A stretch of DNA of 17,984 nucleotides from a virus. Taxonomy: Duplodnaviria; Heunggongvirae; Uroviricota; Caudoviricetes. The notes under the pieces are model-generated. The model saw only the letters and a program-made list of their open reading frames with translations, searched no databases and was not told the DNA's origin. Below are positions 1 to 17,984 of the stretch, piece after piece. The DNA lies in the IMG/VR virus record IMGVR_UViG_2541047596_000007; one strand, given 5' to 3'. Position numbers and translations under genes: made by a program. The first letter of the stretch is position 1. Every line of letters starts with the position of its first letter.

Positions 1-258
1 ATGCAAACCGTTATTTTTGGTCGTTCGGGTTGCCCTTACTGTGTGCGTGCAAAAGATCTGGCTGAGAAATTGAGCAATGAACGCGATGATTTTCAGTATC
101 AGTATGTAGATATTCGTGCGGAAGGGATCACTAAAGAAGATCTACAACAAAAGGCAGGTAAACCCGTAGAAACCGTGCCGCAGATTTTTGTCGATCAGCA
201 ACATATCGGCGGCTATACCGATTTTGCTGCATGGGTGAAAGAAAATCTGGACGCCTGA
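1..258 (+). CDS. grxA: Glutaredoxin 1
   Basis: 85-aa ORF starting at window position 1 with a CPYC active site (GCPYCVRAKDLAE). It matches my recollection of E. coli GrxA almost residue for residue. Confidence 0.93.
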   Translation: MQTVIFGRSGCPYCVRAKDLAEKLSNERDDFQYQYVDIRAEGITKEDLQQKAGKPVETVPQIFVDQQHIGGYTDFAAWVKENLDA

Positions 259-267
259 TCGTCTGAC

Positions 268-300
268 AAGCCCTCGCGTTGAGGGCTTTACTGATTTTTT
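268..300 (+). terminator. Rho-independent terminator downstream of grxA (convergent with ybjM)
   Basis: Inverted repeat AAGCCCTC / GAGGGCTT (268-275 and 281-288, 5-nt loop) followed by a T-run at 295-300. Confidence 0.45.
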
Positions 301-665
301 CTGTGCTGTGGTTTAAACAAACTACTGATAAATAAGAAACACAGTGCCCCCAGCGCACACCAGAACACCGCGCTTAGTAACCATGCCAGCTCTTGCCAGA
401 ATGAGCGCGTCGGTGAAAAAAACAGCCGCATAATGAGCATCGAACAGGGTGCCGCCAGCATTGCGCCAAACAGAGGTTTCAGGACTTCTCTACGCTGTGA
501 AAAGAAGCTGGCGACTGCTCCAGGAAGAATGAAAAATAGCAAGCCGATTTCAGGATGCCCGGCAGCCCGAAAAGCGCCTTTCATGTGCGTCGCCAGAAAA
601 AGGCACACCACAATGAAGAGGACAAAACAGCAGATTGCCCCCGCCCAACGTTGTTTATGTTTCAC
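288..665 (-). CDS. ybjM: Inner membrane protein YbjM
   Basis: 125-aa hydrophobic ORF convergent with grxA, matching the E. coli grxA-ybjM-ybjL neighbourhood as I recall it. Confidence 0.85.
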   Translation of the reverse strand: MKHKQRWAGAICCFVLFIVVCLFLATHMKGAFRAAGHPEIGLLFFILPGAVASFFSQRREVLKPLFGAMLAAPCSMLIMRLFFSPTRSFWQELAWLLSAVFWCALGALCFLFISSLFKPQHRKNQ

Positions 666-934
666 TCGTTCCTCCTGACACTGCGTCTATCGAACACATT
701 TTTCGCCAGTGTGGCGTTCAGTAAGATAAAGCCGCTTCGCATTCCATGCTAATATAGGCCAACGCAATTCATATAGCCGTTGATACCTAATGTGATTACA
801 CTAGTAAAATATATTGTTACTTTACTATCGTTTAGGTGCGCTGAATGAATCTGCGCCCTGAATTCTGGTAAAAAACATTATCGTAAATTACCATTTCTTT
901 CAACAGCTTACTAGTAAACAAGAAGTTAGCCTCC

Positions 935-2620
935 GTGAATATAAACGTCGCCGAATTGTTAAATGGGAATTACATTCTGTTATTATTTGTGGTCCTCGCG
1001 CTTGGGCTATGTCTCGGAAAGTTACGACTTGGTTCGATCCAACTGGGTAATTCCATTGGCGTTTTAGTCGTATCGCTGTTATTAGGCCAACAACATTTCA
1101 GCATTAACACCGATGCGCTTAATCTTGGCTTTATGCTGTTTATTTTCTGCGTCGGGGTCGAAGCCGGACCGAACTTTTTTTCCATTTTTTTTCGCGATGG
1201 GAAAAATTACCTAATGTTAGCACTGGTGATGGTTGGCAGTGCGCTGGTGATCGCCTTAGGGTTAGGTAAGCTGTTTGGCTGGGATATTGGCCTGACGGCC
1301 GGTATGTTAGCAGGCTCTATGACGTCGACACCGGTTCTGGTCGGTGCTGGCGATACACTGCGTCATTCCGGCATGGAAAGCAGGCAGCTCTCACTGGCAC
1401 TGGATAATCTGAGCCTCGGGTATGCCTTAACCTATTTAATCGGTCTGGTGAGTTTGATTGTTGGTGCGCGTTACTTGCCGAAATTGCAGCATCAGGACTT
1501 ACAGACCAGCGCCCAGCAAATCGCCCGCGAACGTGGCCTGGACACTGATGCCAACCGTAAGGTTTATTTACCGGTGATCCGCGCCTATCGCGTCGGCCCG
1601 GAACTGGTGGCCTGGACCGACGGCAAAAATCTGCGTGAACTGGGTATTTATCGACAAACCGGCTGCTACATTGAACGTATTCGACGTAACGGGATTCTGG
1701 CAAATCCAGACGGTGATGCCGTGCTACAAATGGGCGATGAAATAGCGTTGGTAGGCTATCCCGACGCCCATGCCCGACTCGATCCCAGCTTCCGTAACGG
1801 TAAAGAAGTTTTCGATCGTGACCTTCTCGACATGCGTATCGTCACTGAAGAAGTGGTCGTTAAAAACCATAACGCTGTAGGTAAACGTCTCGCACAACTG
1901 AAGTTGACCGATCACGGTTGCTTCCTTAACCGCGTCATTCGTAGCCAGATTGAGATGCCGATAGATGACAACGTCGTGCTTAACAAAGGTGACGTTTTAC
2001 AAGTCAGCGGCGATGCCCGCCGCGTAAAAACCATCGCCGATCGCATCGGCTTTATCTCGATTCACAGCCAGGTCACTGACCTGCTGGCATTCTGCGCCTT
2101 CTTTGTTATTGGGCTGATGATCGGGATGATCACCTTCCAGTTCAGCACATTCAGTTTCGGCATGGGGAACGCTGCCGGGTTGTTATTCGCCGGAATTATG
2201 CTGGGCTTTATGCGTGCTAACCACCCGACCTTCGGTTACATTCCGCAGGGTGCATTAAGCATGGTGAAAGAGTTCGGCTTGATGGTGTTTATGGCAGGCG
2301 TTGGTCTGAGCGCCGGTAGCGGTATTAATAACGGCCTGGGCGCGATTGGCGGTCAGATGTTGATTGCCGGATTGATTGTCAGTCTGGTGCCCGTGGTTAT
2401 CTGTTTCTTGTTCGGTGCTTATGTATTGCGAATGAACCGCGCGCTGTTGTTCGGCGCAATGATGGGCGCACGTACCTGCGCGCCGGCAATGGAGATCATC
2501 AGTGATACAGCTCGCAGTAACATCCCGGCGCTGGGCTATGCGGGCACCTATGCAATCGCCAACGTCCTGCTGACGCTGGCAGGGACAATCATCGTCATGG
2601 TATGGCCAGGATTAGGATAA
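935..2620 (+). CDS. ybjL: Putative transporter YbjL (AAE/YidE-YbjL family, TrkA-C domains)
   Basis: 561-aa ORF with hydrophobic N- and C-terminal halves flanking a soluble central region. Length and sequence are consistent with E. coli YbjL. Confidence 0.92.
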
Positions 2621-2732
2621 AACTGAAGTTGCCCTGAAAATGAAATTTTTTTGCACAACCGCAGAACTTTTCCGCAGGGCATCAGTCTTAATTAGTGCCA
2701 CTGCTTTTCTTTGATGTCCCCATTTTGTGGAG

Positions 2733-2776
2733 CCCATCAACCCCGCCATTTCGGTTCAAGGTTGATGGGTTTTTTG
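2733..2776 (+). terminator. Terminator-like hairpin in the ybjL-prophage junction
   Basis: CCCATCAACC (2733-2742) pairs with GGTTGATGGG (2760-2769), followed by TTTTTT (2770-2776). It lies 113 nt after the ybjL stop, where the prophage attR is expected. Confidence 0.4.
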
Positions 2777-2855
2777 TTGCCTGAAATTTAAGCTGTTTAA
2801 AATCATGATGTTAGAAGCACTGTTTTTTAACGATGGCGACAAAATGGCGGCAGCG

Positions 2856-3074
2856 TCAAAGAGAGAGCGCCACCTGTCCTGATTTCATTGGATGCGGCTG
2901 AACCGGATTTGACTCTTTTGGCGTTGCAATCGAACGAACAAAAGTTTCATGGGTAACAAAAGTATGGCTGCAGTTAATGTTCTGGCACTGGTTGTAACGC
3001 TCTTTGGTCAATGAAGATACCTGAAAACTGCTGCGAGTATGGGCGGCACTTCCACACAGTGGGCAAATCATCAT
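2856..3074 (-). CDS. ogr: Ogr/Delta-family late transcription activator (Cys4 zinc finger)
   Basis: CPLCGSAAH...CQNINCSHTF zinc-finger pattern like P2 Ogr. Start chosen at the internal Met (MMICPLCG), preceded by GGGGAGAA on the minus strand, giving about 72 aa as in P2 Ogr. Confidence 0.8.
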   Translation of the reverse strand: MMICPLCGSAAHTRSSFQVSSLTKERYNQCQNINCSHTFVTHETFVRSIATPKESNPVQPHPMKSGQVALSL

Positions 3075-3164
3075 TTTTCGAGTTCTCCCCATTTTTGCTA
3101 AATTCACAATAATGATACCGCATTATTCCATTTTGCAAACTTAAAAGTTCTCCATTGCGAAGAA

Positions 3165-4001
3165 TCATTCCATTTCGAAATCATCAATCCTCACTTCAAG
3201 CTCCAGACTGGTCGTAAAACCATTATCCGGGCTTACGGTATGCGTCAGAGTCGTAATGGTCCATTCCGCATCATCTATCGGCTGTTTAAAGCCACTGACT
3301 TTCACTGGCATTTCCGTGTAGAGATCTGCCCGCCCTTCCGCCAGTTGTAACGAGAATGACGCAACGCCGCGTTGCAGGCGTTCCCACTGCATTTTCGCCG
3401 CTCGTTCGGCGTTGCTCCGGTTGGCATAAGTGCGATTAAGTACCAGCACGTTTTCATCCGTACCCACCAGGTAATCGCCCTGCTTCGCTTCCGGCTCTTT
3501 CTTCTGCTTCTTAGTCCTGCGCTTACGCTTCACCGTGGTGCTTTCTTTCTTCGCGGGTTCGCGGGTATGCAACCAGCTGGCAATTACGCCCGTGTAGGCT
3601 CCGCGATCTGCCAGGGTAAAGCGGTGACTGTCGCCGTCCTTACGTGTGATAGTGATAACCGGTAGTGGTTTACCGCTGGCGCTTTTACCCTGTCCCTGCC
3701 GGATGAATAACAGATTGCCATTTTTCACCGACGCAATAGCACCGTACTGGCGCGCCAGCCGCATCAGAAAACTGCCGTCACTCTCATTGGTCTGGTCTAT
3801 ATGCTCCACGGGTTTATCCGACAGGTCTTCACCCAATGCCATCTTCAGTTTGTGCCGCGCAGATATTTCCTTCACGACTTCCCCAACGGTGGTCTTGTGC
3901 CACGATTTTTCACGGCGGGTATTCAGCGTTTCACGAAAATCAGCACTTCGCGCCCGGATAGTCAGGCGGTCCGGTGCGCCAGTGTGTTCAATCTCGTCCA
4001 C
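3165..4001 (-). pseudogene. P2 gpD-like tail protein, N-terminally truncated remnant
   Basis: The 278-aa ORF (TGAPDRLTIRARSADFRETLNTRRE...DQTNESDGSFLMRLARQYGA) matches the middle and C-terminal part of P2 gpD. About 100 N-terminal residues of the roughly 387-aa protein are missing and the upstream gene U is absent. Confidence 0.7.
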
Positions 4002-4329
4002 CGTGAATGCCCCTTTCGGGAAAAGCGGCTGCCCGATGAAGCAAGCCCGCGTCGCAGCAGTGCCAGTGGTGCGCCAGCCAGCCAGGACAACGCGCTGCTG
4101 GTTCGAGTTACTGCTGCCGTAACGGAAGGTAACATTTTGATACCCAGCACAGAGAATCCCAGACGGATCACTGCCAGCGGCCCCAGCACTGCAGCCAGCG
4201 CCACCGCTAAGGTGCCGAGGCCCACGGTAACGGCAGCCACCACAGCGGCTACTTTCATCAGTGTGCCTGTCAGTTCCGGGTTAGCTTCCACCCAGCGACG
4301 CAACGCCCCTGTGACCGACGCCGCACAAA

Positions 4330-4700
4330 ACCAGGAGGATGTGAACAACCTCCGCAACGCGATGAAAAGCGCCAAAGGCCCAGGTAACTTCCGCAACCTG
4401 TTTATGTACTCGCCTAACGGCAAAAAGGACGGGCTTCAGATCATCCCGTTGTCAGAAGTCGCGGCGAAGGATGAGTTTTTGAATATCAAGAACGTGAGCC
4501 GGGATGACATGATGGCGGCGCATCGTGTGCCGCCTCAGATGATGGGGATTATGCCGAGTAATGTTGGCGGGTTTGGGGATGTGGAAAAGGCTAGTAAGGT
4601 TTTTGTAAGAAATGAAGTAATCCCCTTACAGCAAAGAATCTGTGAAATCAACCGATGGTTAAATGACGATATAATAAATTTTAAAGAATATTCGATGTAA
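4330..4700 (+). pseudogene. Phage portal protein (P2 gpQ-like), C-terminal fragment only
   Basis: The last ~120 aa of ORF 3801-4700 (FRNLFMYSPNGKKDGLQIIPLSEVAAKDEFLNIKNVSRDDMMAAHRVPPQMMGIMPSNVGGFGDVEKA) resemble the portal C-terminus. The N-terminal part of that ORF is antisense to the gpD region and not portal-like. The left boundary is approximate. Confidence 0.5.
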
Positions 4701-4732
4701 AATTAAAGAGTCTCAAATGAGACTCTTTAATT
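4701..4732. terminator. Bidirectional hairpin between portal remnant and HNH gene
   Basis: Perfect 14-bp inverted repeat AATTAAAGAGTCTC / GAGACTCTTTAATT (4701-4714 and 4719-4732) with a 4-nt loop, lying between two convergent stop codons. Confidence 0.55.
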
Positions 4733-5400
4733 TAAGGAAGCATCGTATCAAAAACATCACGCAACGCAGTAGAGAATGGTCTGGGGTCTATTTCTTTATA
4801 ATACTCGTCTCGAAGTTCGTTACGGACACTATCATCATAAAGTCCCTCTTCGATGAACTCTTCAGCTGTAGAAACAAATCTCTCTATCAATGACCATGTT
4901 TCTGATATTGCATTGATGCGCTCAGTTTTCACGCCGCCCTTTTCACCATTCAGGTTAAAAACCCTTATAGTAACCTCAGCTCTTCGCTCATCGTTTCGCG
5001 ATAACCCCGGACGAATATCCATATTTCCATTAATAGCGAAATGGAAAAAATGTGTGGGGTCATCATTATCGGCCTTGATTAGGTCTTGCTCCTGATAGCT
5101 CTGTTCATCTTTGTAAAAACCGCAGTGATTATTTTCAGCACAAGAGCCGAACAAGTTTGACCATTCAAATGTTAAATGCCTATGCTGGCTTCTACGCAAA
5201 AAATGCTCGATATGCTTATCATCACTATTGTGAATATCTATTTTCCGCTCACAATACGCACATCTCTTCCCTTGCATTTCAACTAAACCGACCCAGACTA
5301 ATTGTTTATGTCGCCGTTTAAAAGCATTCCAGTCATGAATATTGTAGTCAAACTCGGCTAAAACACCTGGACCAATGGGATTTCTAGCAAGGAATTTCAT
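4732..5400 (-). CDS. HNH endonuclease, PtuB-like retron/Septu effector
   Basis: 222 aa with an HNH signature (CAYCERKIDIHNSDDKHIEHF ... CAENNHCG). The start overlaps the upstream ATPase stop in an ATGA junction. Confidence 0.8.
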   Translation of the reverse strand: MKFLARNPIGPGVLAEFDYNIHDWNAFKRRHKQLVWVGLVEMQGKRCAYCERKIDIHNSDDKHIEHFLRRSQHRHLTFEWSNLFGSCAENNHCGFYKDEQSYQEQDLIKADNDDPTHFFHFAINGNMDIRPGLSRNDERRAEVTIRVFNLNGEKGGVKTERINAISETWSLIERFVSTAEEFIEEGLYDDSVRNELRDEYYKEIDPRPFSTALRDVFDTMLP

Positions 5401-7052
5401 TGTTTAGATTCCTTATTGCCAGACTCACCCCGCACTTTGTCTTTTAGCTTTAATACACGAATTATACCATCACACTCAAGTAATAATGGGTGATCAATTC
5501 CATAATGCTTGTCTAACTTTTTCCTTATCATTATGGCTTCCTCCGAATCCTGCTGCCTGTTTTCAATAAATTTCTTATAAGTGCTCAGCCATGCGACTTC
5601 TTTTACATTAGGTACAGGATCTGTTTTCATCCCATAAAGCAAAGCGTACGAATTCTTAGTACCTTTTGTTTGAGATGATGGTAAAAGCACACGTAATTCC
5701 TTCATGCCTGTCGAAGGGTTTTTTATTTCCTCAAGGATGCGCAAGCATTTACTTGGAACTGTCGATACAATTTGAGGGCTATGAGTGGTAATTATGAATT
5801 GTACGTTAGGAAATGTATGCTGCAATTTCTCAATAATGTTTTGCTGCCAGCTTGGGTGCAAATGAAGATCAACTTCATCAATTAATACTATACCTTTCCC
5901 TTGAAGTGGATTATTTAACTTAGGATTCAGCAACACCAAGCGTCTTGTTAAATCCCCCACTAATGTAAGTATAGTTTTCTCCCCTTGAGAGAGTTGCTGG
6001 GCATCTAATAGTAAATCATCTTTTGCTAAAACTAAACGAACTTCATTTTCAGTATATTGAAGTTCAACAGAGCTAATTTCAGGAAGGAAATTAATTATTG
6101 CCCTTTTAACATTAGCAACAATATCTTTTGAACGACTTAAACCATTTGGTGTAGACGGTAACGTATTAAGAATCAACTCTTTATTAGCAATTTGTGTTTC
6201 TATATCTATTAATGTTCTTCTATCAACATCACTGAAAGATTTCAAAACCTCCAAAGATACCTTAAGCTTTGAGATATCAATAACAAGTTGATCTCTTTGT
6301 TTTTCTGGTATCAAGGACTCCTCAGACAATGCCTTATTATTAACAAATATAAACCAATTTAAAAACTCACCGAAGTCACGGCGATCAAACTCTATATCTT
6401 CATAAGCATCAAGCTTAGTCCATCGACGCACAGAATTATTAACATTTCTTTTATTATCTATGCCTGCACCATTTGAAGATCTTGATACAGAGTAATATGC
6501 AAGAACCGGAAGGCTTACATCTTCATAATATGAATTCACAACACGAAAGAATGACGCCATCTCTTTTATAGAAAGCAACTCATTATTTCTTTTTTGTGAT
6601 ACTCCATCTTTAACACGTGTAACTAAAATATTTGACGTTATTTTTTTAAGTTTAAACTGCGCAGTTATTGCAGCATAATTGACATCATTATGATTGTTAA
6701 TATCACCATCTTTTATATGAAAACCGCTTTTATCTTCTTTTTGAACATTTGCTCTAAACCAACTTAAAGCAATAAATAATGCTTCAAGAATGGTGGTTTT
6801 ACCGTAACCATTATCACCAACAAACACTGTTAGTTTTTTGTCGATCGAAACAAAAAGATCCCTGACTCTTTTATAGTCTGAGATGGCGACTTTATTTATA
6901 AGAAATGGTGCATCTTCAATTTCCTTATATAACGAAGATACCTCTTCAGGAATGTTCTCTTTACTGAATTCTAAACCATCTTCAGTTTTATTTACATAAG
7001 ACTGCAATAATGTACGAATGTCATTTGGTGATTTAGTATACTTTGAGTTCAC
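5397..7052 (-). CDS. ABC/SMC-like ATPase, PtuA-like retron/Septu partner
   Basis: 551 aa with Walker A (GDNGYGKTT), an ABC-signature-like LSQGEK, and Walker B/H-loop (VLIDEVDLHLHP). Overlaps the RT stop and the HNH start by ATGA at both ends. Confidence 0.82.
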   Translation of the reverse strand: MNSKYTKSPNDIRTLLQSYVNKTEDGLEFSKENIPEEVSSLYKEIEDAPFLINKVAISDYKRVRDLFVSIDKKLTVFVGDNGYGKTTILEALFIALSWFRANVQKEDKSGFHIKDGDINNHNDVNYAAITAQFKLKKITSNILVTRVKDGVSQKRNNELLSIKEMASFFRVVNSYYEDVSLPVLAYYSVSRSSNGAGIDNKRNVNNSVRRWTKLDAYEDIEFDRRDFGEFLNWFIFVNNKALSEESLIPEKQRDQLVIDISKLKVSLEVLKSFSDVDRRTLIDIETQIANKELILNTLPSTPNGLSRSKDIVANVKRAIINFLPEISSVELQYTENEVRLVLAKDDLLLDAQQLSQGEKTILTLVGDLTRRLVLLNPKLNNPLQGKGIVLIDEVDLHLHPSWQQNIIEKLQHTFPNVQFIITTHSPQIVSTVPSKCLRILEEIKNPSTGMKELRVLLPSSQTKGTKNSYALLYGMKTDPVPNVKEVAWLSTYKKFIENRQQDSEEAIMIRKKLDKHYGIDHPLLLECDGIIRVLKLKDKVRGESGNKESKQ

Positions 7053-7990
7053 ATCCCCTCCTCAGAAAAAAGCGCATGTATTACTTCTTTCCCATATTTA
7101 ATTTTCATTCTAGCAATAAATTTAGGCTCTATATATAAAGCATGTCCAACAAAGCCCTTAAGGCTTATAACATCCTCTTTAGCCAGTAAGCCTAGTGTAT
7201 ATTTATGCAGCAGAGAAGAAATCATTCTCTTCTTTTGCCTACCGAGCGAAAGCTCCCCATCAACTGTTAATGTCACACCTGTCACATGTCTATTATGAGC
7301 TTTAGACGTGAATACAGTTTTAGATTCATTTAAAGATATACCTTTAGCACATAATGATAATGCAAACCTTACTACTTTCGGGACCTCAAAAAGTATATTC
7401 TTCTCATCTGTAGAAAATGTAATATCATCAGCATACCTTGAATATGAAATATTCCTAACAGAGCACCAATTGTTTATATAATTATCAAAATCATACATTA
7501 CAAAATTACTAACAAAAGGTGAGGATGGCGCCCCAACGCTCAACACGAGAGTGATACTTCTTTTTTTTCCTGGTTTCCAGAAAAGAATCCCTTCTAAAAA
7601 CTCCTTATCCTCACCTGACAAAACAACCCCTTGAGAGCGAAGTTTATCAAATAAAAGAGCCGGTTTAATTTTATTGAAGAAATTCTGAAAATCCATTTTT
7701 AAAAGATAGGAGTTTGCCATATGGATTTTGGCATTGTCCTTAATTCCTATAGAAACTTTATAAGCTTTCGCTGCATCGTGCACGATGAGCTTGGAAGCCA
7801 AAATTTTCACAACCTCACGCTGAATTCGCTTTATCTCACTCGTTGGTTGAGCAATAAGCCTGAATCCACTTTGTCGTTTAGGAATTGTGTAGACTTTATA
7901 TTTTTTAGGCGCAACACTCGATAACCGCCTCAGCTCGTTAACGTTTACTCCAAGTTCTTTGCTAACAGCCGATAAAATTTCCATAAACAT
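7049..7990 (-). CDS. Retron-type reverse transcriptase
   Basis: 313 aa with RT motifs: LKMDFQNFF (motif A), GAPSSPFVSN (motif B) and RYADDITFS (YADD catalytic motif C). Its size and the adjacent structured ncRNA fit a retron RT. Confidence 0.88.
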   Translation of the reverse strand: MFMEILSAVSKELGVNVNELRRLSSVAPKKYKVYTIPKRQSGFRLIAQPTSEIKRIQREVVKILASKLIVHDAAKAYKVSIGIKDNAKIHMANSYLLKMDFQNFFNKIKPALLFDKLRSQGVVLSGEDKEFLEGILFWKPGKKRSITLVLSVGAPSSPFVSNFVMYDFDNYINNWCSVRNISYSRYADDITFSTDEKNILFEVPKVVRFALSLCAKGISLNESKTVFTSKAHNRHVTGVTLTVDGELSLGRQKKRMISSLLHKYTLGLLAKEDVISLKGFVGHALYIEPKFIARMKIKYGKEVIHALFSEEGM

Positions 7991-8270
7991 TCCGCTTGTG
8001 AGGCCCGCTTGCGCGGGCCGAGCTCTTCACTAAAGACAGCGAAAGCGACGAATTCCGCCTTCGTAAACTATGGCAACAGCCATAGGATGCGAAGGCGGAA
8101 TTCGTCGCTTTCGCAACCCTAAACTGAGCAATAAATTAGAGCCTGGCTTATCGCCCGGCTAGAACGCAATGGTTCCCTAACGCTAAAGAGCATAGGAATA
8201 CTAATGTTGCAACGAACAAATAGCAAGCCGGGCGCGCGCTCGTATCCCCGCCACGCCTGCCCGCTTTATG
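7991..8270 (-). ncRNA. Retron msr-msd non-coding RNA (boundaries approximate)
   Basis: Non-coding GC-rich region immediately upstream of the RT on the same strand. It contains the long msd hairpin (8039-8114), a 7-bp hairpin GGCCCGC-TTGC-GCGGGCC (8002-8019) and a long-range complement CGCCCGGCT (8152-8160) / AGCCGGGCG (8226-8234). I could not identify a1/a2 by eye. Confidence 0.55.
8039..8114 (-). repeat. msd stem-loop: perfect 25-bp inverted repeat
   Basis: GCGAAAGCGACGAATTCCGCCTTCG (8039-8063) is the exact reverse complement of CGAAGGCGGAATTCGTCGCTTTCGC (8090-8114). The 26-nt loop holds an inner 6-bp palindrome CTATGG/CCATAG (8068-8073 and 8080-8085). Confidence 0.85.
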
Positions 8271-8300
8271 TAGTGGTTTTCATGCACCTGCATGATCTAC

Positions 8301-8326
8301 GCAAAAGCCCGCCAGTTCTGGCAGGC
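8301..8326 (-). terminator. Candidate rho-independent terminator after the DinI-like operon
   Basis: On the minus strand, GCCUGCCAG-AAC-CUGGCGGGC forms a 9-bp stem with one G-U pair, followed by UUUUGC. Confidence 0.35.
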
Positions 8327-8460
8327 CTTAGCAAAAACGATCCTCAAACGATCATGCGATCTCATGCGGCATAGACATGCACCACAGAGCTAACGCCTCG
8401 CACAGCTCGTTGTTCAACCTTGCTGACGCCAGAAGCAAGTTCAGACGCCAGCAGCGTTTC

Positions 8461-8694
8461 TTAATGCAGCCAGCTGTCGTCTTCCCACACCTTCTGCATA
8501 ATTTTCATCACTTGTTTTCTTTCTTCGTCCAGTTGCAGTCCGGTCAGTTCCACACCGTTAGAGCTACCTTTGCGGATACGAATTACCGTTTTGGGATACA
8601 GGGGGCGCAGATTGCGGTAAAGCTCGGATTCAAGGGCGTCCAGGATAGACTGGCTAATCTTCTGCTCTTTATCGATCATTATTTCAATGCGCAT
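8461..8694 (-). CDS. DinI-family protein (77 aa)
   Basis: Start taken at the internal Met MRIEIMIDK, preceded by GAGGTG. The pattern MRIE...DAL..EL...W.DD.W parallels E. coli DinI (MRIEVTIAK...WESADDW). Confidence 0.78.
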   Translation of the reverse strand: MRIEIMIDKEQKISQSILDALESELYRNLRPLYPKTVIRIRKGSSNGVELTGLQLDEERKQVMKIMQKVWEDDSWLH

Positions 8695-8704
8695 AAAAGT
8701 CACC

Positions 8705-8893
8705 TCAGTTGATGACATCCATTGAGCGGTTGTATTCGTGGCTTCTGATTTTTGCCATGAGTTCATCTGTCAATTCAGAAACCCACTGCAGAGCCAGCCC
8801 CTTCTCTTCATCACTACACTCACTAGCCGCTACAAGCTTAAGAAAAAAATCAATGCGCTGGAGCTTCAAAGACTCCAAAAAATAGTCCTGCAT
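8705..8893 (-). CDS. Small hypothetical protein (62 aa), first gene of LexA-box operon
   Basis: Start chosen at MQDYFLESL because of a strong SD (GGAGGAAAG then ATG) and LexA boxes just upstream. The longer 96-aa reading would place the LexA boxes inside the coding region. Confidence 0.5.
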   Translation of the reverse strand: MQDYFLESLKLQRIDFFLKLVAASECSDEEKGLALQWVSELTDELMAKIRSHEYNRSMDVIN

Positions 8894-8919
8894 CTTTCCT
8901 CCTATGACACCACAAGCAA

Positions 8920-8954
8920 TACTGTATGCATAAACACTGTTTATATTTACAGTA
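8920..8954. promoter_or_regulatory. LexA (SOS) box plus adjacent half-matching box upstream of the small-ORF/DinI-like operon
   Basis: caCTGTttatatttACAGta (8935-8954) fits CTGT-N8-ACAG with an AT-rich spacer. The overlapping CTGTatgcataaACAC (8922-8937) is a near match. Confidence 0.6.
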
Positions 8955-9046
8955 TATAATAATCTTACTGATGTAAAACGTTTTTTTACGTTCATCAGCC
9001 TGATATGCCTGGTATTATTAAGAGCACGAATTGTTAACCCGCGTAA

Positions 9047-11461
9047 TTAATACAGGTTCCGCCACTTATCATCTTCCTGCAAACGCTGGTTCCGATAGAA
9101 GATACGCAGGCCTGCTCCTGACGGAATACTGCCACCGCGAAGGAGCAAATCGACCTCTTTCTCGCTGCCATCAAATCCTCTGGACTTCAGTTCATAGACG
9201 AGCTGCTGACGCTGATGCTCTGTAATTCGCTGTTTGTAGTCTTTACGCCGTTTCGGTTTAACCAGGCGTAATCTTGCTACCAGTTCCCGGCGCTCTTTTT
9301 TGTTCATACAGTGCAGGTAATCGTGCAACTCCTTGTCATCCATGCGGGTGATATCCGTTCTGGTATCCCCATCAGCTGATTTGTCTTTCCCTTGTTGGTA
9401 CAAATTTTCAGCAAGGGGACAGTTATTGCCACGAGTCCAAGGGGCGCAAGCGCTCTGGTCGGCTACCGCCTCCTGAACGTCAACGGCCTTACGAACCATT
9501 TTCCACTTCACTGCATGAGTGCAGATCTTGCCCTCTGCAATGGGTGACCAGATGCCATAAATACGAATACCGTGATCGCCATAGGCGGTCGGCTCTTCGT
9601 TAATTTCATAAGCAGTTCTGATGAGGTGATATTTACGGGGAACCAGTACACCTCCCTGCTTCATGATATAGGTGGCAAAACAACCAGCATCAGCAGCAGC
9701 CAGAATGGCATCAAGGCGCGGGTTATCCAGTACCGGCACACCTGCTTTTTTGTCACCCTGCTGCCTTGCCGCCTGACCAGCCAGCAATCGCAGTTCACGG
9801 TAAGCCTGACGCCCCGGAATACCAAAGAAGCGGAATTGCTGAACACGATGCAAAGACGCCCAGGCATTCACGTATTCAGCGTTATCACGAAGAGATTTAC
9901 CCGTTTCCTTGCTGATCTCGCCAGCCAGACCACGCCCGTCAATGTTCTTACTGATGTATTTCGCTATGTAGCTTGTCGGCGTTCCTTTGCGCGGGTTAAT
10001 CAGCTCAGACTTAAAGCGCGGCCCCGTGTTATTGCCCAGCTCCTCGCGGTCTTCACGGATAGCAAACTTACGCAACAATGCAGTAATGGCGCGGCGGTCT
10101 TTTTTGCGCATGAAACACAACAGGTGCCAGTGAACTGTGCCGTCGTGATGCGGCTCAGCCACCCGCACGCCATACCAGCGCAACCCGGCTTTGTGCATCG
10201 CCTTACGAAATGCAGCAAACATACCGACCAGATAATCGCTGCTTTGTCTTACCGTCGCGTTTTTCCAGGTCGGATTGGGTCTGCCGTTATTGAGCGTGGA
10301 ATGGAAACGTGACGGACAGGTAATGGTGTAGAAAACGGCGCAGTCACCGCGCATTTCCGCGATAAGCTCCAGACCTTTAACACAGGCCATCATCTCATTG
10401 CGGCGATGCGCCGGGTTGCTGCAGCTGGCGTTTACCACATCTTCCATATCCAGCGCGTCTCCGTCTTCGTTCACCAGTTCATGAGAACGGAAAAACTCCA
10501 GCGACTTACGGCACTGCTCACGTTTATGCATCACAGCTTCATAGCTGACATAGGGAGATGCTTTTTTGCTGACCAGGCAGACAGCACGCAACTGCTCTTC
10601 CCGCCATTCGCAACGCATCTTCCACAATTTCCGATACCACCAGTCGGCGCACAGCATACGCGCCAGCGAGCCCGGAATGAGTTCATAGGGCACGGGTTTA
10701 CGGCGGTTTCTTTTCCGACGGAGTTGCTCAAACGCAGGCGGGATGACATCCAAACGTAGGGTTTCCGCTGCCACCTTTTCCCATGTCTTGCGGATTTCTT
10801 CTGGCTTAACATCATCGGTGGCGTACAAATCACCACAAGCGGCATCAAGACACATGCTCATATGCGCAGCGACAAGGGTAGACAGGCGTTTCACCTGATC
10901 CTGACTCATTTCAGGCAGGATCAGCAGGCCGTCCAGCCCTTCATGGCTTGCCATAAAGCGAAAAGAAGTGGATAGCTGACTGTCGCGTACATGCTCCAGT
11001 CGTTCCAGACATGGCTTAATCGTCTCACGCAAATAGCGGGAATAAGCCTTTGGCCTGCCCAGACTGCTGAAGTATTCAATACGTTGCATCAGCGGCTTGC
11101 TGATATGGGAAGGCTGGGCGTTGACGTCAGCCAGAATGACCATGTCTGGATTAAAACGCTGCTGCTCATGCGCCAGCTTTGCCCGGCTAATGAGCTTATC
11201 CTGCTCCATTTCGCGCTGGACAGGATCACGGGATTCATTAAAGAAATAACGCTCCCAGACCTGCTCACTCAGTGCCTCGCGGCGCAGTTGTTCCTGCTCG
11301 TTATCGGCAGCATACAGAGTGATCAGGTTTGAAAGTGCAGACTCCGGCGCAAATTCCGCCGGGTCCAGATAAGGGTTAATGGCCTTTTTCGGGCCGTTCC
11401 ATGAAAATGATGCAGCGGCCTCGTTAAAGCCGCTAGAGTTGCTCATATCGTCATGACTCAT
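9047..11461 (-). CDS. A: P2/186 gene A-like rolling-circle replication initiator
   Basis: 804 aa with an HUH-type metal motif ([10 protein letters not shown]) and paired tyrosines ([10 protein letters not shown]), as in the P2 A endonuclease. The start overlaps the Dam stop by ATGA. Confidence 0.88.
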
Positions 11462-14241: not shown

Positions 14242-15120
14242 ATGAATTTCAAAAACGGAGGACAGGCAGTCATAAAGCGCATGCTTGAAGCGTATGGATT
14301 CAAGACGCGGCAAGCCCTATGTGAACAGTTCAATGTATCTGCAAGTACTATGGGAACGCGCTGGATGCGTGACGCATTTCCTGCTGACTGGGTAATTCAG
14401 TGTGCAATTGAAACAGGAGCATCTATAGAGTGGCTCTCATTCGGAAAAGGCGTGCCATTTCCTAAGAATACCGAAGTTCCCGCTAAATTAGAGGAACCAG
14501 CATCATTGGTTCAATATGTTCCCAAAGCCACCACCAACGAGAACCCAATTGTGAACCATCCAAATCTGGATTCAGGTGGACGTAATGCGATAAACAGGCT
14601 AATGGAAGCGTATGGCTTTAAAACAAGACAAGAACTTGCCGACCATTTGAATGTGTCTAAAAGCACAATGGCGAATAGATACTTGCGAGACACATTCCCA
14701 GCTGACTGGATCATAAGATGCTCGTTGGAAACAAGAACTTCTCTTTTATGGTTAGCAACTGGGCGCGGGCAAAAACTTGGAAGCGAAGAAAGTGAAGCTT
14801 TAGAAATTCCTAAAGTAAAACTTATTGACAATCAAATTTTCGATGCTGGTCATTTATTGATAGATAAGTCCCTGCTTCCTCATTTTAATGATTTACTCGC
14901 AATTGAAGACGAACATTGCATAAATATTGCACACATGAATAAAGCTAATGTTGAAGACGGAAGATGGATTGTTCAATACCAAAATAATTTCAAGTTAAAA
15001 CAAATTTTTCTATTACCTGGAGGCAATCTTCGAGTAACAGACGATGATTTAACATTTGATTGTGAAAAAGAAGATATAAAATTAGTTGCCAAAATTTTCT
15101 CACAGTACCGTACTATTTAA
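14242..15120 (+). CDS. CI-like repressor with tandemly duplicated N-terminal CI-type HTH domains
   Basis: 292 aa. Residues ~5-70 (RMLEAYGFKTRQALCEQFNVSASTMGTRWMRDAFPADWVIQCAIETGASIEWL) and ~111-176 (RLMEAYGFKTRQELADHLNVSKSTMANRYLRDTFPADWIIRCSLETRTSLLWL) are homologous copies of the phage CI-repressor HTH fold, followed by a distinct ~115-aa C-terminal domain. Confidence 0.72.
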   Translation: MNFKNGGQAVIKRMLEAYGFKTRQALCEQFNVSASTMGTRWMRDAFPADWVIQCAIETGASIEWLSFGKGVPFPKNTEVPAKLEEPASLVQYVPKATTNENPIVNHPNLDSGGRNAINRLMEAYGFKTRQELADHLNVSKSTMANRYLRDTFPADWIIRCSLETRTSLLWLATGRGQKLGSEESEALEIPKVKLIDNQIFDAGHLLIDKSLLPHFNDLLAIEDEHCINIAHMNKANVEDGRWIVQYQNNFKLKQIFLLPGGNLRVTDDDLTFDCEKEDIKLVAKIFSQYRTI

Positions 15121-15135
15121 TCTTGAGGCATAGTA

Positions 15136-16164
15136 ATGGATTTTATAAAAAAACTCGAATTTGGAAATTATACTCTCCGTTTTGGTGATGATGTTTTGCT
15201 AGACTATTATGATGAAATTGTTTTCCCCTCTTTTTTGGAGATGGCAAACATCCGCAGAATATCTGACAAATCAGAGTTCTTTTTCATTGATACTGAATGC
15301 GTCATACTTGACGAAGAAGCAACACCCCCAGTACTCGGAATTAAAGGTCGGATTATTAAGAATACATTATTAACCAGAGAACAAGTATTTGATGGTGCTG
15401 ATTTGGTTGAAGATCATAAAGAGCTTGAAACAGCCCCGAGCTCTTTCTTTCTTCTAATATTAAACACTCACAGATTAATTCTTTGCAAGGAAGTTAGTGG
15501 TGCTCCCACAATTCAAAACTTTCAGTCAACAAGTCAGTGTTTCTTAAACATAGAATATGAAAAATACATATCTCATTTATACGAAACCGCACAAGAAGAA
15601 CGCAAAGAAAACCCTGACTTACCTCGAGTCACTAAAAAAAGCTTACGGAACGAAATCAAACGCCCGAAGCTAAGAATAACGCCGTTAACTGACAAACAAA
15701 GCCTAGAGCAATTTATTGATAATTTTAATAAAATCCAAAATGTCTCAGTAAAACTTCTCCCTACAAATCAAGAAGAAATTGATAACGACGAATTTTGGGA
15801 GTCGCTTGAAAGTGCCGGAGACGAAATGGGAAGTATTTCTACATCTATTCGCTTTTCAAACACCGATTCAGGCTTGAATCATGGTGCTGTTTTAGAACAA
15901 CTCACATCAGCAACCAGATTGGCTAATTCAGGAATAAATATTAAAGGATATGATGACAATGGTGATATAATCAAAGGTAGCAATGATGACTTTGTTTTGT
16001 TAAGTGAGATGAATGAATTATCAAAGGATACGGTAGTAGCTGCAAATGAAAGTTATGAGCGGTATGAAAATCTTGTAGAAGAAGGTAAGATATCTCTACC
16101 CCGTTCTCTTTCACAAAAGACGATTAGAATTATTAGCAATATATATGAAAGGTTTGGTCGATGA
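15136..16164 (+). CDS. Hypothetical soluble protein, unrecognised family (candidate exclusion/defence component A)
   Basis: 342-aa ORF 15 nt downstream of the cI stop, with GAGG about 8 nt upstream of the ATG. Visibly AT-rich compared with the phage core. No catalytic or NTP-binding motif recognised; two domains separated by a charged linker. Confidence 0.7.
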   Translation: MDFIKKLEFGNYTLRFGDDVLLDYYDEIVFPSFLEMANIRRISDKSEFFFIDTECVILDEEATPPVLGIKGRIIKNTLLTREQVFDGADLVEDHKELETAPSSFFLLILNTHRLILCKEVSGAPTIQNFQSTSQCFLNIEYEKYISHLYETAQEERKENPDLPRVTKKSLRNEIKRPKLRITPLTDKQSLEQFIDNFNKIQNVSVKLLPTNQEEIDNDEFWESLESAGDEMGSISTSIRFSNTDSGLNHGAVLEQLTSATRLANSGINIKGYDDNGDIIKGSNDDFVLLSEMNELSKDTVVAANESYERYENLVEEGKISLPRSLSQKTIRIISNIYERFGR

Positions 16165-16841
16165 TAAATAAAATAGATGCTAAAGAAATAACCAAAGAGA
16201 AAAACCTTTGGGATGTTTACTTGCTCTGCAAACGGATTACTATTAGTACATTCCATATTTGCATTTTGCTCACAGCATCTATTTTTTTATTAACAAACTC
16301 TTTTTTTATTGAGAAGGATATGTCTCATTTAGTATCTGACATTAGAAACTGGGCTTTGATTGGTTTTAACTTTGCAGTGACAACCTTAGGTTTTCTCATT
16401 GCTGGTTTCACAATATTTGCAACACTATCCAAACCCGAGATGTTTCTTCAGATGATGTCAATACAACATAAAAAAACACAGATGCCCACGTTAAAATATA
16501 ACTTTATGGCATTTATGAAAGTTTTCATCTCATTTATTACGTTTACTTTCATTTATCTAATAATAATTCTCTTTTGTCAAAAAGATGGAATAATTGGTAA
16601 TATAATTGATTTATTTCCATATTCAAAATCGATAAAAGAATTAATTATTAAATTTGGATACTGTGTTATAGGGACTAGCCTTATTTACTTAGTGTTAGTA
16701 GTAAAGACATTTATTTTTAATATCTACGCTATCATAATGAATAATATTCGTTGGGAGTTATACATTAAAAGAAAAGAACAAAGACTTTCCAGTAACAAAG
16801 AGACAATCAATAAAAACATAGATGTAACTAAAATGCATTAA
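16161..16841 (+). CDS. Hypothetical four-TM membrane protein (candidate exclusion/defence component B)
   Basis: 226 aa whose start overlaps the upstream stop by ATGA. Four hydrophobic segments of about 23-30 residues (approx. aa 26-50, 64-89, 115-139, 162-194). Very AT-rich. Confidence 0.7.
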   Translation: MINKIDAKEITKEKNLWDVYLLCKRITISTFHICILLTASIFLLTNSFFIEKDMSHLVSDIRNWALIGFNFAVTTLGFLIAGFTIFATLSKPEMFLQMMSIQHKKTQMPTLKYNFMAFMKVFISFITFTFIYLIIILFCQKDGIIGNIIDLFPYSKSIKELIIKFGYCVIGTSLIYLVLVVKTFIFNIYAIIMNNIRWELYIKRKEQRLSSNKETINKNIDVTKMH

Positions 16842-16931: not shown

Positions 16932-17984
16932 ATGGCAGTACGAAAACTCACCACAGGAAAATGGCTTTGCGAATGTTACCCCGCCGGACGTAGTGGACGT
17001 CGTGTGCGTAAACAATTCGCCACCAAAGGCGAAGCACTGGCTTTTGAGCGTCACACGATGGAAGAAACCGAAGCAAAGCCCTGGCTAGGTGAATCAGTGG
17101 ATCGTCGAACACTGAAAGACGTGGTTGAGCTATGGTTCAAACTACATGGTAAATCACTGACAGCTGGGCAGCATGTCTATGACAAATTGCTGCTGATGGT
17201 TGACGCTCTGGGCAATCCCCTTGCAACCGATCTAACCTCTAAAATGTTTGCCCACTATCGAGATAAACGCCTGACAGGTGAGATCTACTTCAGCGAGAAA
17301 TGGAAGAAAGGAGCAAGCCCGGTCACCATTAACCTGGAGCAAAGCTATCTAAGTAGTGTTTTTAGCGAACTATCCCGCCTGGGCGAATGGTCGTATCCGA
17401 ACCCACTGGAGAACATGCGAAAATTCACCATCGCAGAAAAAGAGATGGCATGGCTTACCCATGAGCAGATTGTTGAATTACTGGCTGATTGCAAACGTCA
17501 TGACCCAATTCTGGCACTGGTAGTTAAGATATGCTTAAGCACAGGCGCACGCTGGCGAGAAGCCGTAAATCTTACTCGTTCACAGGTGACCAAATACCGA
17601 ATTACCTTTGTAAGAACGAAGGGGAAGAAAAACAGAAGCATCCCTATCAGTAAAGAGCTTTACGAAGAGATCATGGCGCTTGATGGGTTCAATTTCTTCA
17701 CAGACTGCTATTTTCAATTTTTATCCGTGATGGAAAAAACGTCTATCGTCCTCCCTCGCGGTCAACTGACACACGTTCTGCGCCATACGTTTGCGGCGCA
17801 TTTCATGATGTCGGGTGGAAATATCCTTGCTTTGCAAAAAATCCTCGGACATCACGATATAAAAATGACTATGCGTTACGCTCATCTGGCACCGGATCAT
17901 CTGGAAACGGCGCTCCGTTTCAACCCTCTGGCAACGCTGCCAAGTGGCGACAAAGTGGCGGCAGCGGTTGGCATTACCCCGTAA
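16932..17984 (+). CDS. int: P2/186-type tyrosine integrase
   Basis: 350 aa with the tyrosine-recombinase catalytic pattern: R in STGARWREA, HxxR in HVLRHTFAAHF, and the tyrosine in MRYAHL. The N-terminus resembles P2 Int (MAVRKL vs MAIKKL). The stop codon is the last triplet of the window. Confidence 0.9.
   Translation: MAVRKLTTGKWLCECYPAGRSGRRVRKQFATKGEALAFERHTMEETEAKPWLGESVDRRTLKDVVELWFKLHGKSLTAGQHVYDKLLLMVDALGNPLATDLTSKMFAHYRDKRLTGEIYFSEKWKKGASPVTINLEQSYLSSVFSELSRLGEWSYPNPLENMRKFTIAEKEMAWLTHEQIVELLADCKRHDPILALVVKICLSTGARWREAVNLTRSQVTKYRITFVRTKGKKNRSIPISKELYEEIMALDGFNFFTDCYFQFLSVMEKTSIVLPRGQLTHVLRHTFAAHFMMSGGNILALQKILGHHDIKMTMRYAHLAPDHLETALRFNPLATLPSGDKVAAAVGITP

Follow-up and report, generated by a model that had tools for sequence, protein, structure and literature searches.

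A 186/P2-like prophage remnant at rybB in Escherichia coli with a probable scar of stepwise late-gene deletion and a retained cos homologue

The stretch of DNA analysed here (hereafter the window; 17,984 nucleotides, IMG/VR record IMGVR_UViG_2541047596_000007) carries a prophage that, judged from its sequence, is of the 186/P2-like type (Peduoviridae) and is integrated at the 3' end of the small RNA (sRNA) gene rybB in Escherichia coli. The region at positions 3165-4732 is very probably the scar of stepwise deletions of the RecA-independent type in this prophage, a product of ordinary decay. Two short-overlap joints, mapped to the base, hold an internal piece of the tape-measure gene gpT between truncated gpD and portal genes, a surviving intermediate was found, and a cos homologue persists; 'defective' need not mean 'immobile'. 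The locus is a well-resolved example of a temperate phage turning into a fixed defence island. Taken singly it is ordinary, another instance of the known class of defective P2-like prophages at the rybB site; the unexplained part is the re-use of deletion endpoints.

Anatomy of the deletion scar

The window was compared by blastn with Klebsiella phage 4LV2017 (NC_047818) and with a much closer reference, the intact rybB prophage of E. coli S163-2 (NZ_CP058709, locus L006), which is 99.975% identical over window positions 1-4034. The assignment to the P2/186-like phages comes from colinear nucleotide homology over the early region, ogr, D, T and Q. Identity over most of the retained DNA is 95-98% to 4LV2017 and 95-99.98% to S163-2, and about 90% in the portal tail. 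A tyrosine integrase beside the attachment site (att) and integration at the 3' end of an sRNA gene, both P2/186-like features, are also present. The complete late gene set (Q P O N M L, lysis, R S V W J I H G, FI FII E T U D) is absent. Against 4LV2017, the matches form three consecutive pieces: 2665-4034, comprising attR, ogr and the C-terminal part of gpD; 4030-4312, an internal 283-bp piece of gpT; and 4312-4639, the portal C-terminus.

The gpD remnant, D' (3165-4034, minus strand), keeps the C-terminal 289 of 366 codons and has lost the first 77. It is 99.98% identical to S163-2, where the D gene spans 3165-4265 and the blastn alignment of D' ends at 4034, and 95.8% identical to 4LV2017. 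Pfam Phage_GPD is matched over profile positions 63-302 of 305. The longest open reading frame (ORF) left in D' (3165-4001, GTG start, 278 aa) exactly matches CCQ02625.1 of E. coli O5:K4(L):H4 ATCC 23502. At its truncated end D' meets gpT in a 5-bp overlap, TGCCC (4030-4034), found at L006 4030-4034 in D and at L006 5928-5932 in T. This first junction cost 1,898 bp, namely the C-terminal part of gpT, the whole of gpU and the N-terminus of gpD. The gpT fragment that follows, T' (4030-4315, minus strand), encodes aa 537-631 of 1025 (95 codons), equals S163-2 5928-6213 at 286 of 286 nucleotides and is out of frame with D'.

At the other end of T', a 4-bp overlap, TGAC (4312-4315), corresponds to L006 6210-6213 in T and L006 24530-24533 in the portal gene, and 18,320 bp are lost there relative to S163-2. 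The portal remnant Q' (gpQ, or W in 186; 4312-4700, plus strand) retains approximately the last 130 of 343 codons at about 90% nucleotide identity, its blastn match being S163-2 24530-24858. It scores 34.4 bits with Pfam Phage_portal, under the gathering score of 39.1, and its 119-aa ORF is CCQ02627.1, from the same ATCC 23502 strain as the D' match. The prophage very probably comes from the lineage of that strain (O5:K4:H4). D' and Q', on opposite strands, are separated by 277 bp and, with T', are all that is left of the late genes. Both joints are direct-orientation joins of colinear prophage DNA. Neither of them, gpD/gpT or gpT/portal, carries an att core, the mark of an Int-mediated remnant.

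In total, about 20.2 kb are missing relative to S163-2: most of the portal gene, then terminase, scaffold, capsid, head completion, lysis, baseplate, fibre, sheath and tube genes, most of gpT, gpU and the gpD N-terminus. Since the window covers the element from att up to the integrase stop, and the far att core would lie only about 75 bp beyond the window end by its position in relatives, no structural genes are hidden elsewhere in the element.

A first-pass annotation, made from the letters of the window, had described much of this arrangement. Its reading of a gpD lacking the N-terminus some 300 bp from a portal C-terminus on the opposite strand agrees with the lengths and the gap given above. 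Its tentative suggestion that the ORF at 3962-4423 (minus strand) contains tape-measure sequence was right, as T' forms the middle of that ORF, together with 36 antisense-portal codons and out-of-frame D. The loss of the whole morphogenetic block by deletion is borne out and includes the lysis genes. The alignment it had proposed for mapping the endpoints returned the two exact joints, and the capsid and tail genes that it had considered might lie elsewhere in the prophage are not there. Its single decay junction is a real deletion scar, but one made of two junctions with a history of at least three deletions.

Deletion history

An intermediate state is preserved in a Logan contig (SRR29469951_45, locus L012, reverse-complement coordinates 6837-18579) that matches the window at 100% identity over 1-4315 and over 4312-6898. 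It carries the gpD/gpT junction and then gpT up to nucleotide 7087, where an 11.2-kb deletion joins gpT to the lysozyme gene. Past that joint come holin, X, L, M, N, O, P and a complete portal gene, a portal-to-holin segment that includes terminase, scaffold and capsid genes. The window corresponds to this contig minus about 7.1 kb. Because the contig is identical to the window on both sides yet keeps the portal-to-holin segment, the decay was stepwise and took at least three deletions.

The sequences suggest the order D/T, T/lysozyme, T/portal. A 1.9-kb deletion fused codon 78 of gpD, at TGCCC, to the central part of gpT. An 11.2-kb deletion from gpT to the lysozyme gene arose in a sister lineage or an intermediate, and a deletion of about 7.1 kb, probably the last, linked gpT to the portal gene at TGAC, erasing the gpT/lysozyme joint. 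Numerous other strains have lost this block at the same site through deletions of other extents. Over 1-9444, the window is matched at 100% identity by a Logan contig from SRR2000406.

Several points weigh against this account. L012 is the single intermediate from which the order of events is drawn, and the parent is approximated. The reverse path, in which recombination restored DNA, is unlikely. Population data for the allele are thin, the two joints together occurring in 0 of 5,426 complete RefSeq E. coli genomes. Finally, the window breakpoints coincide with those in unrelated remnants, a coincidence not predicted by simple random microhomology deletion.

Re-used deletion endpoints among rybB-site remnants

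We mapped 33 distinct junctions in about 30 rybB-site remnants from complete genomes and read-set contigs (loci L007-L009, L012, L017-L021 and L024-L055), in L006 coordinates and with this single reference standing for the parents. Among these junctions, 19 pairs of endpoints coincide within 3 bp. Randomising positions within genes gives an expectation of 1.3, and a ±40-nt jitter one of 2.6; three null models give 1.3-2.6, the maximum in 20,000 trials was 11, and the coincidence has p<5e-5. The remnants were collected by way of ogr-D' and of their similarity to the window, and a lineage with successive deletions may be counted repeatedly.

Several endpoints were used with more than one partner. 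Portal nucleotide 24226/7 has four (D4029, D4191, E8113 and FI9653), while D3596 (invertase 10250, N21123 and Q24316) and D3921 (T5255, FI9653 and P23647) have three each. T6019, P23205 and Q24316 have two partners apiece, and FI9653 is the left end of one junction and the right end of another. Both outer endpoints of the window recur as well. Its portal endpoint, 24530, is shared with strain 11PC, in which the gpT partner is different and the portal allele only 87% identical, and its gpD endpoint, 4029-4034, is shared with FDAARGOS_1250, where it is joined to the portal gene. By hand count, about 14 of the 33 joints connect TA to TA, and five more end in CA. The re-use is not an artefact of the method, because the seven terminase-gene endpoints compared all differ and because the portal gene is cut elsewhere, beside an insertion sequence (IS), in a Cedecea copy of the cargo (L057), which is usable only as a negative control.

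These data raise the possibility, which we hold tentatively and below the ordinary-decay account, that a site-preferring process made the deletions instead of random microhomology slippage. Candidates are a recombinase, a transposase or a type I or II topoisomerase acting at particular sites, often TA, or template switching at fixed replication pause sites. The excess of coincident endpoints, the endpoints with three or four partners, the TA-to-TA joints and the sharing of the window's own endpoints all speak for such a process. Its difficulties are that the window overlaps are TGCCC and TGAC, not TA, that the sites resemble neither the prophage invertase sites nor the gpA nick site, and that non-random sampling and successive deletions in one lineage may have inflated the counts. 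The total information of an extended motif around the TA hot spots was not significant (p=0.06), hairpin or palindrome centres at the hot spots gave a weak dyad signal (p=0.03) with folding energy no different, and no mosaic boundary was found in the portal gene at the hot spots. If the endpoints are indeed re-used hot spots, prophage domestication has a testable mechanistic bias, for which replication pausing, topoisomerase action or a recombinase would be among the candidate causes, and catalogues of 'cryptic' P2-like elements might then include helper-dependent mobile elements.

Specific agents were considered for the hot spots and rejected. Invertase quasi-sites do not fit, the crossover sites (L006 10766-10792 and 12622-12648, central TT/AA) being dissimilar. 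Mimicry of the gpA nick site was discarded for want of any resemblance, and Rpn nucleases were set aside as no sequence specificity has been reported for them. The 18-kb Klebsiella record NC_049449, considered as a further deletion derivative, proved to be merely a truncated record.

There are hints that the invertase site plays a part in some deletions of the rybB prophage family. The invertase-proximal joint of L038 falls on the outer edge of a tail-fibre invertase crossover site (L006 10792), and in L051 a sequence like the crossover site lies within an unaligned 524-nt stretch just past the joint at L006 10130. In both remnants the joints then connect to the CII region.

The cos site, the portal/cargo spacer and possible mobility

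A conserved non-coding block at 8232-8382 (minus strand) aligns to the annotated cos sites of P2 and 186. A blast with the P2 cos region at short word size (match 8245-8289), followed by alignment, located it. It has the DinI/Tum gene on one side and the retron msr on the other, and the portal remnant is 3.5 kb away. The predicted 19-nt cohesive-end sequence, GGCGTGGCGGGGATACGAG (8257-8239, minus strand), is identical in S163-2 and matches its 186 counterpart, GGCGTGGCGGGGAAAGCAT, at 14 of 19 positions; that of P2 is GGCGAGGCGGGGAAAGCAC. The flanks GTGCATGAAAACC and CGCGCGC align to both phages, and the upstream GTGCAT-repeat and AAAACC elements are conserved, as is the downstream CGCGCGC. The block shows 90-97% conservation in 86 phage records, Fels-2 and RE2010 among them. 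Conservation across phages ends 7 bp past the 19-mer, where variable cargo starts, and the msr starts 48 bases further on.

Dodd & Egan 1996 (cited in PMC6868368) place the cargo of 186-related prophages with retrons Ec67 and Ec86 between cos and the portal terminator. By alignment the same arrangement is seen in the present lineage, with cos retained; with the cargo in this position, cos adjoins the DinI/gpA side. On the portal side, the spacer between the portal stop and the stop of the PtuB HNH gene (4701-4731, 31 bp) contains a near-perfect inverted repeat, AAAGAGTCTC-AAAT-GAGACTCTTT, with a 10-bp stem that is conserved in M37H and L012. It is probably a bidirectional terminator common to the portal and cargo operons, to judge from its structure; a simple terminator scan did not call the 4701-4731 repeat. 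In relatives with a complete portal gene the same gap measures 31 bp (M37H), 35 bp (4LV2017) and 39 bp (S163-2), which identifies the 31-bp spacer, on sequence grounds, as native and not as a scar.

The sequence thus appears to hold the cis site for helper packaging, in a remnant that could not build particles itself. The element would be unable to make virions or to lyse the cell, and should still confer immunity and retron defence. As cos, gpA and int are intact, excision, replication and packaging by a related helper phage could in principle occur.

A broader proposal, which we think unlikely, would join this potential to the endpoint data: late-gene loss at rybB would proceed by site-preferring breakage and joining, often TA to TA, at a few re-used positions in D, T, FI, P and the portal gene, and would yield helper-mobilisable 'mini-phages' of about 15 kb that keep cos, gpA, int and ogr and carry defence genes, the window among them. 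Rather more doubtful still is the idea that the remnant is itself a selected, helper-dependent 'mini-phage', mobilised by a co-resident or infecting P2/186-like phage. The analogy with P4 Delta suggests that the Ogr of the element could trans-activate helper late genes. This idea draws on the retained set, in which cos, gpA, int, CI, DinI/Tum and ogr are intact while all late structural genes are gone or truncated, on the convergence of independent remnants on that same set, and on the size, two copies of 15.3 kb making 30.6 kb, or about one 186 genome. It is weakened by the lack of genes for capsid-size redirection or helper exploitation in the element, and by the BL21, L038 and L051 remnants, which have lost gpA or more, as fits neutral decay. 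Anchoring the sampling on ogr-D' also biases the apparent 'retained' set, and no evidence was found of the same junction in unrelated hosts. 

It is very improbable that cos was also removed, by deletion or by cargo insertion, and that the remnant is a dead, non-packageable fossil. The suspicion is understandable, because the cohesive ends of P2 and 186 lie about 170-180 bp beyond the portal stop and only 31 bp follow it here, and because the exact P2 19-mer, with up to 3 mismatches allowed, is found neither in the window nor in the intact Klebsiella relative. The cos homologue with conserved flanks at 8239-8257, the equally short spacer and the same cos position in whole-portal relatives, and the published arrangement of retron-bearing 186-related prophages (Dodd & Egan 1996, cited in PMC6868368) all contradict it. 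The first-pass annotation had counted the 31 bp exactly and had concluded from them that this interval had no room for cos, which was probably missing. The inferred loss fails: the search for P2 cos that it proposed, negative for the exact 19-mer, led in its short-word form to the cos homologue, and the loss is refuted by homology. Its description of the element as non-packageable is likewise at odds with the cos homology, even though the element cannot build particles of its own. It had correctly listed ogr, immunity, replication, integration and cargo functions as retained (ogr, CI, gpA, integrase and retron). That the morphogenetic genes were relocated elsewhere in the chromosome instead of lost is scarcely credible, given that both joints are simple and direct, that L012 carries a smaller deletion and that dozens of sister remnants are plain deletions.

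Relation to known elements

Defective P2-like prophages of E. coli B, W and Crooks, among them Rybb*B with retron Ec86, are listed with rybB as their insertion site (PMC3032704). Like the window, where CII is placed by position, these prophages combine the rybB site with CI, CII, DinI/Tum, gpA and Dam and with internal deletions in the late genes, and have a retron between cos and the portal terminator (Dodd & Egan 1996, cited in PMC6868368). The window differs from Rybb*B in carrying an Ec78-type retron with PtuAB instead of Ec86, in its junctions and in a far more complete loss of late genes. BL21, unlike the window, keeps portal, terminase and most baseplate and fibre genes and has lost part of gpA; the joints that we mapped in BL21(DE3) are D/invertase, lysozyme/O and gpA/CII.

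In K-12, ogrK and the gpD pseudogene yegZ are annotated as 'cryptic prophage PR-X', and an 'ogr-D'' is described at cyaR (PMC3032704). The analogy with ogrK/yegZ drawn in the first-pass annotation is apt, in that both elements have ogr and a C-terminal gpD fragment abutting an att site in an sRNA gene. The inner end of the K-12 remnant (L023, MG1655 2167183-2167820), TACACGGGCTTATTTTTT, reads as a stretch of the P2 attP core in reverse complement, so this remnant arose by Int-type recombination with a pseudo-site in gene D. PR-X is thus a 0.6-kb relic of true P2 with an Int-type origin, whereas the window has short-overlap joints inside late genes and 15 kb with a functional-looking early region. 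The hottest gpD hot spot among the rybB-site remnants, D3596 (ACGCCCGTGTAGG), resembles the P2 core (AAGCCCGTGTAAGG).

A 2026 survey found that defective P2 elements ('UGRs') retain near-identical defence genes (PMC13586616), and a cos-adjacent defence hotspot between gpA and gpQ was described by Rousset et al. 2022 (PMC9122126). The window resembles the elements of both surveys in having intact cargo in the gpA-gpQ hotspot and core genes that are lost or pseudogenes. It differs from them in its intact gpA, a primase/replicase that is there the core gene most often pseudogenised. Junction anatomy, stepwise intermediates and endpoint re-use are not described in the two surveys.

P4-like satellites share with the element a size of 11-15 kb, cos, an integrase, a replication protein of their own, an activator of the Ogr/Delta type and a defence hotspot on the cos side. 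The window, unlike these satellites, has no Sid, no Psu and no alpha-primase/AlpA module, and its only Delta-like gene is its own ogr. Because all retained genes are colinear and of the 186 type, the element descends by deletion from a helper-type phage and is not a relative of P4.

Attachment site, retained genes and retron cargo

The DNA flanking the prophage in the window is E. coli chromosome (grxA, ybjM, ybjL), 99.9% identical to K-12 over 1-2790, where K-12 has the empty site (rcdA-rybB-ybjL). The rybB gene (2700-2778, plus strand; Rfam RybB, 105 bits) forms the left boundary of the prophage. The att core, ATGGGTTTTTTGTT, occupies its 3' end (2765-2778) and is repeated at both ends of the S163-2 prophage. 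The prophage sits at the rybB terminator, and the rybB 3' end is regenerated by integration. In the window the prophage extends from this point to the integrase stop, which is the window end, and the remaining element measures about 15.3 kb. The last nucleotides, 17941-17984, were considered as host DNA; they are phage DNA, and at this place S163-2 carries an additional ORF of 350 bp. A 22-bp direct repeat, TGGCGACAAA(A/G)TGGCGGCAGCG, occurs at 2834-2855, about 70 bp inside the left att, and at 17945-17966, in the last int codons. It was rejected as the att core, and its copies may be arm-type binding sites of Int flanking attP in the circular form.

Next to the left att, the late-gene activator gene ogr (2856-3074, minus strand) is intact, with a Pfam Ogr_Delta score of 77.6 bits and the same annotated coordinates in S163-2 and M37H. 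The gpA protein (804 aa) is full-length by comparison with relatives, and the integrase ORF (16932-17984, 350 aa) is equal in length to the gene of relatives. The Dam methylase ORF is uninterrupted with a full Pfam match, and DinI (DinI/Tum) is matched in Pfam at 8461-8766. CII and Apl are placed by positions colinear with annotated relatives, and neither ORF matched NCBIfam. With CI as the repressor and DinI/Tum as the antirepressor, these putative CII and Apl/Cox-like ORFs make up a candidate SOS-inducible immunity module of the 186 type. The CI-type repressor (14242-15120, 292 aa) is uninterrupted and matches Pfam Phage_CI_repr and Phage_CI_C. It contains two Phage_CI_repr helix-turn-helix stretches, where CI has 189 aa in S163-2, M37H and BL21; KFu019 has two CI proteins, of 189 and 307 aa.

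Between CI and int lies a second variable locus, filled in relatives by a KAP NTPase (KFu019) or an AAA ATPase (11PC). In the window it holds two overlapping plus-strand ORFs (15136-16164 and 16161-16841, 342 and 226 aa), which had no match in Pfam, NCBIfam or PADLOC and are a candidate defence pair.

The cargo between the portal remnant and cos is a type I-A retron operon (Ec78-like, retron-Septu; 4732-8191, minus strand) in which msr, reverse transcriptase (RT), PtuA and PtuB are all present, each on the minus strand. The msr (8123-8191) scores 55.1 bits in Rfam against a gathering score of 52. The RT (7049-7990) matches the NCBIfam retron St85-family RT at 309.5 bits and PADLOC RT_I-A at 435 bits. 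The PtuA ATPase (5397-7052) scores 460.7 bits in NCBIfam, below the equivalog cut-off of 500, and 602 bits in PADLOC, and the PtuB HNH protein (4732-5400) 151.3 bits (cut-off 150) and 377 bits, respectively. A long msd inverted repeat lies at about 8040-8120. The operon is also found in M37H, where it is 99.7% identical, and an 89%-identical copy in the Cedecea sp. genome stands beside a portal fragment with an adjacent IS.

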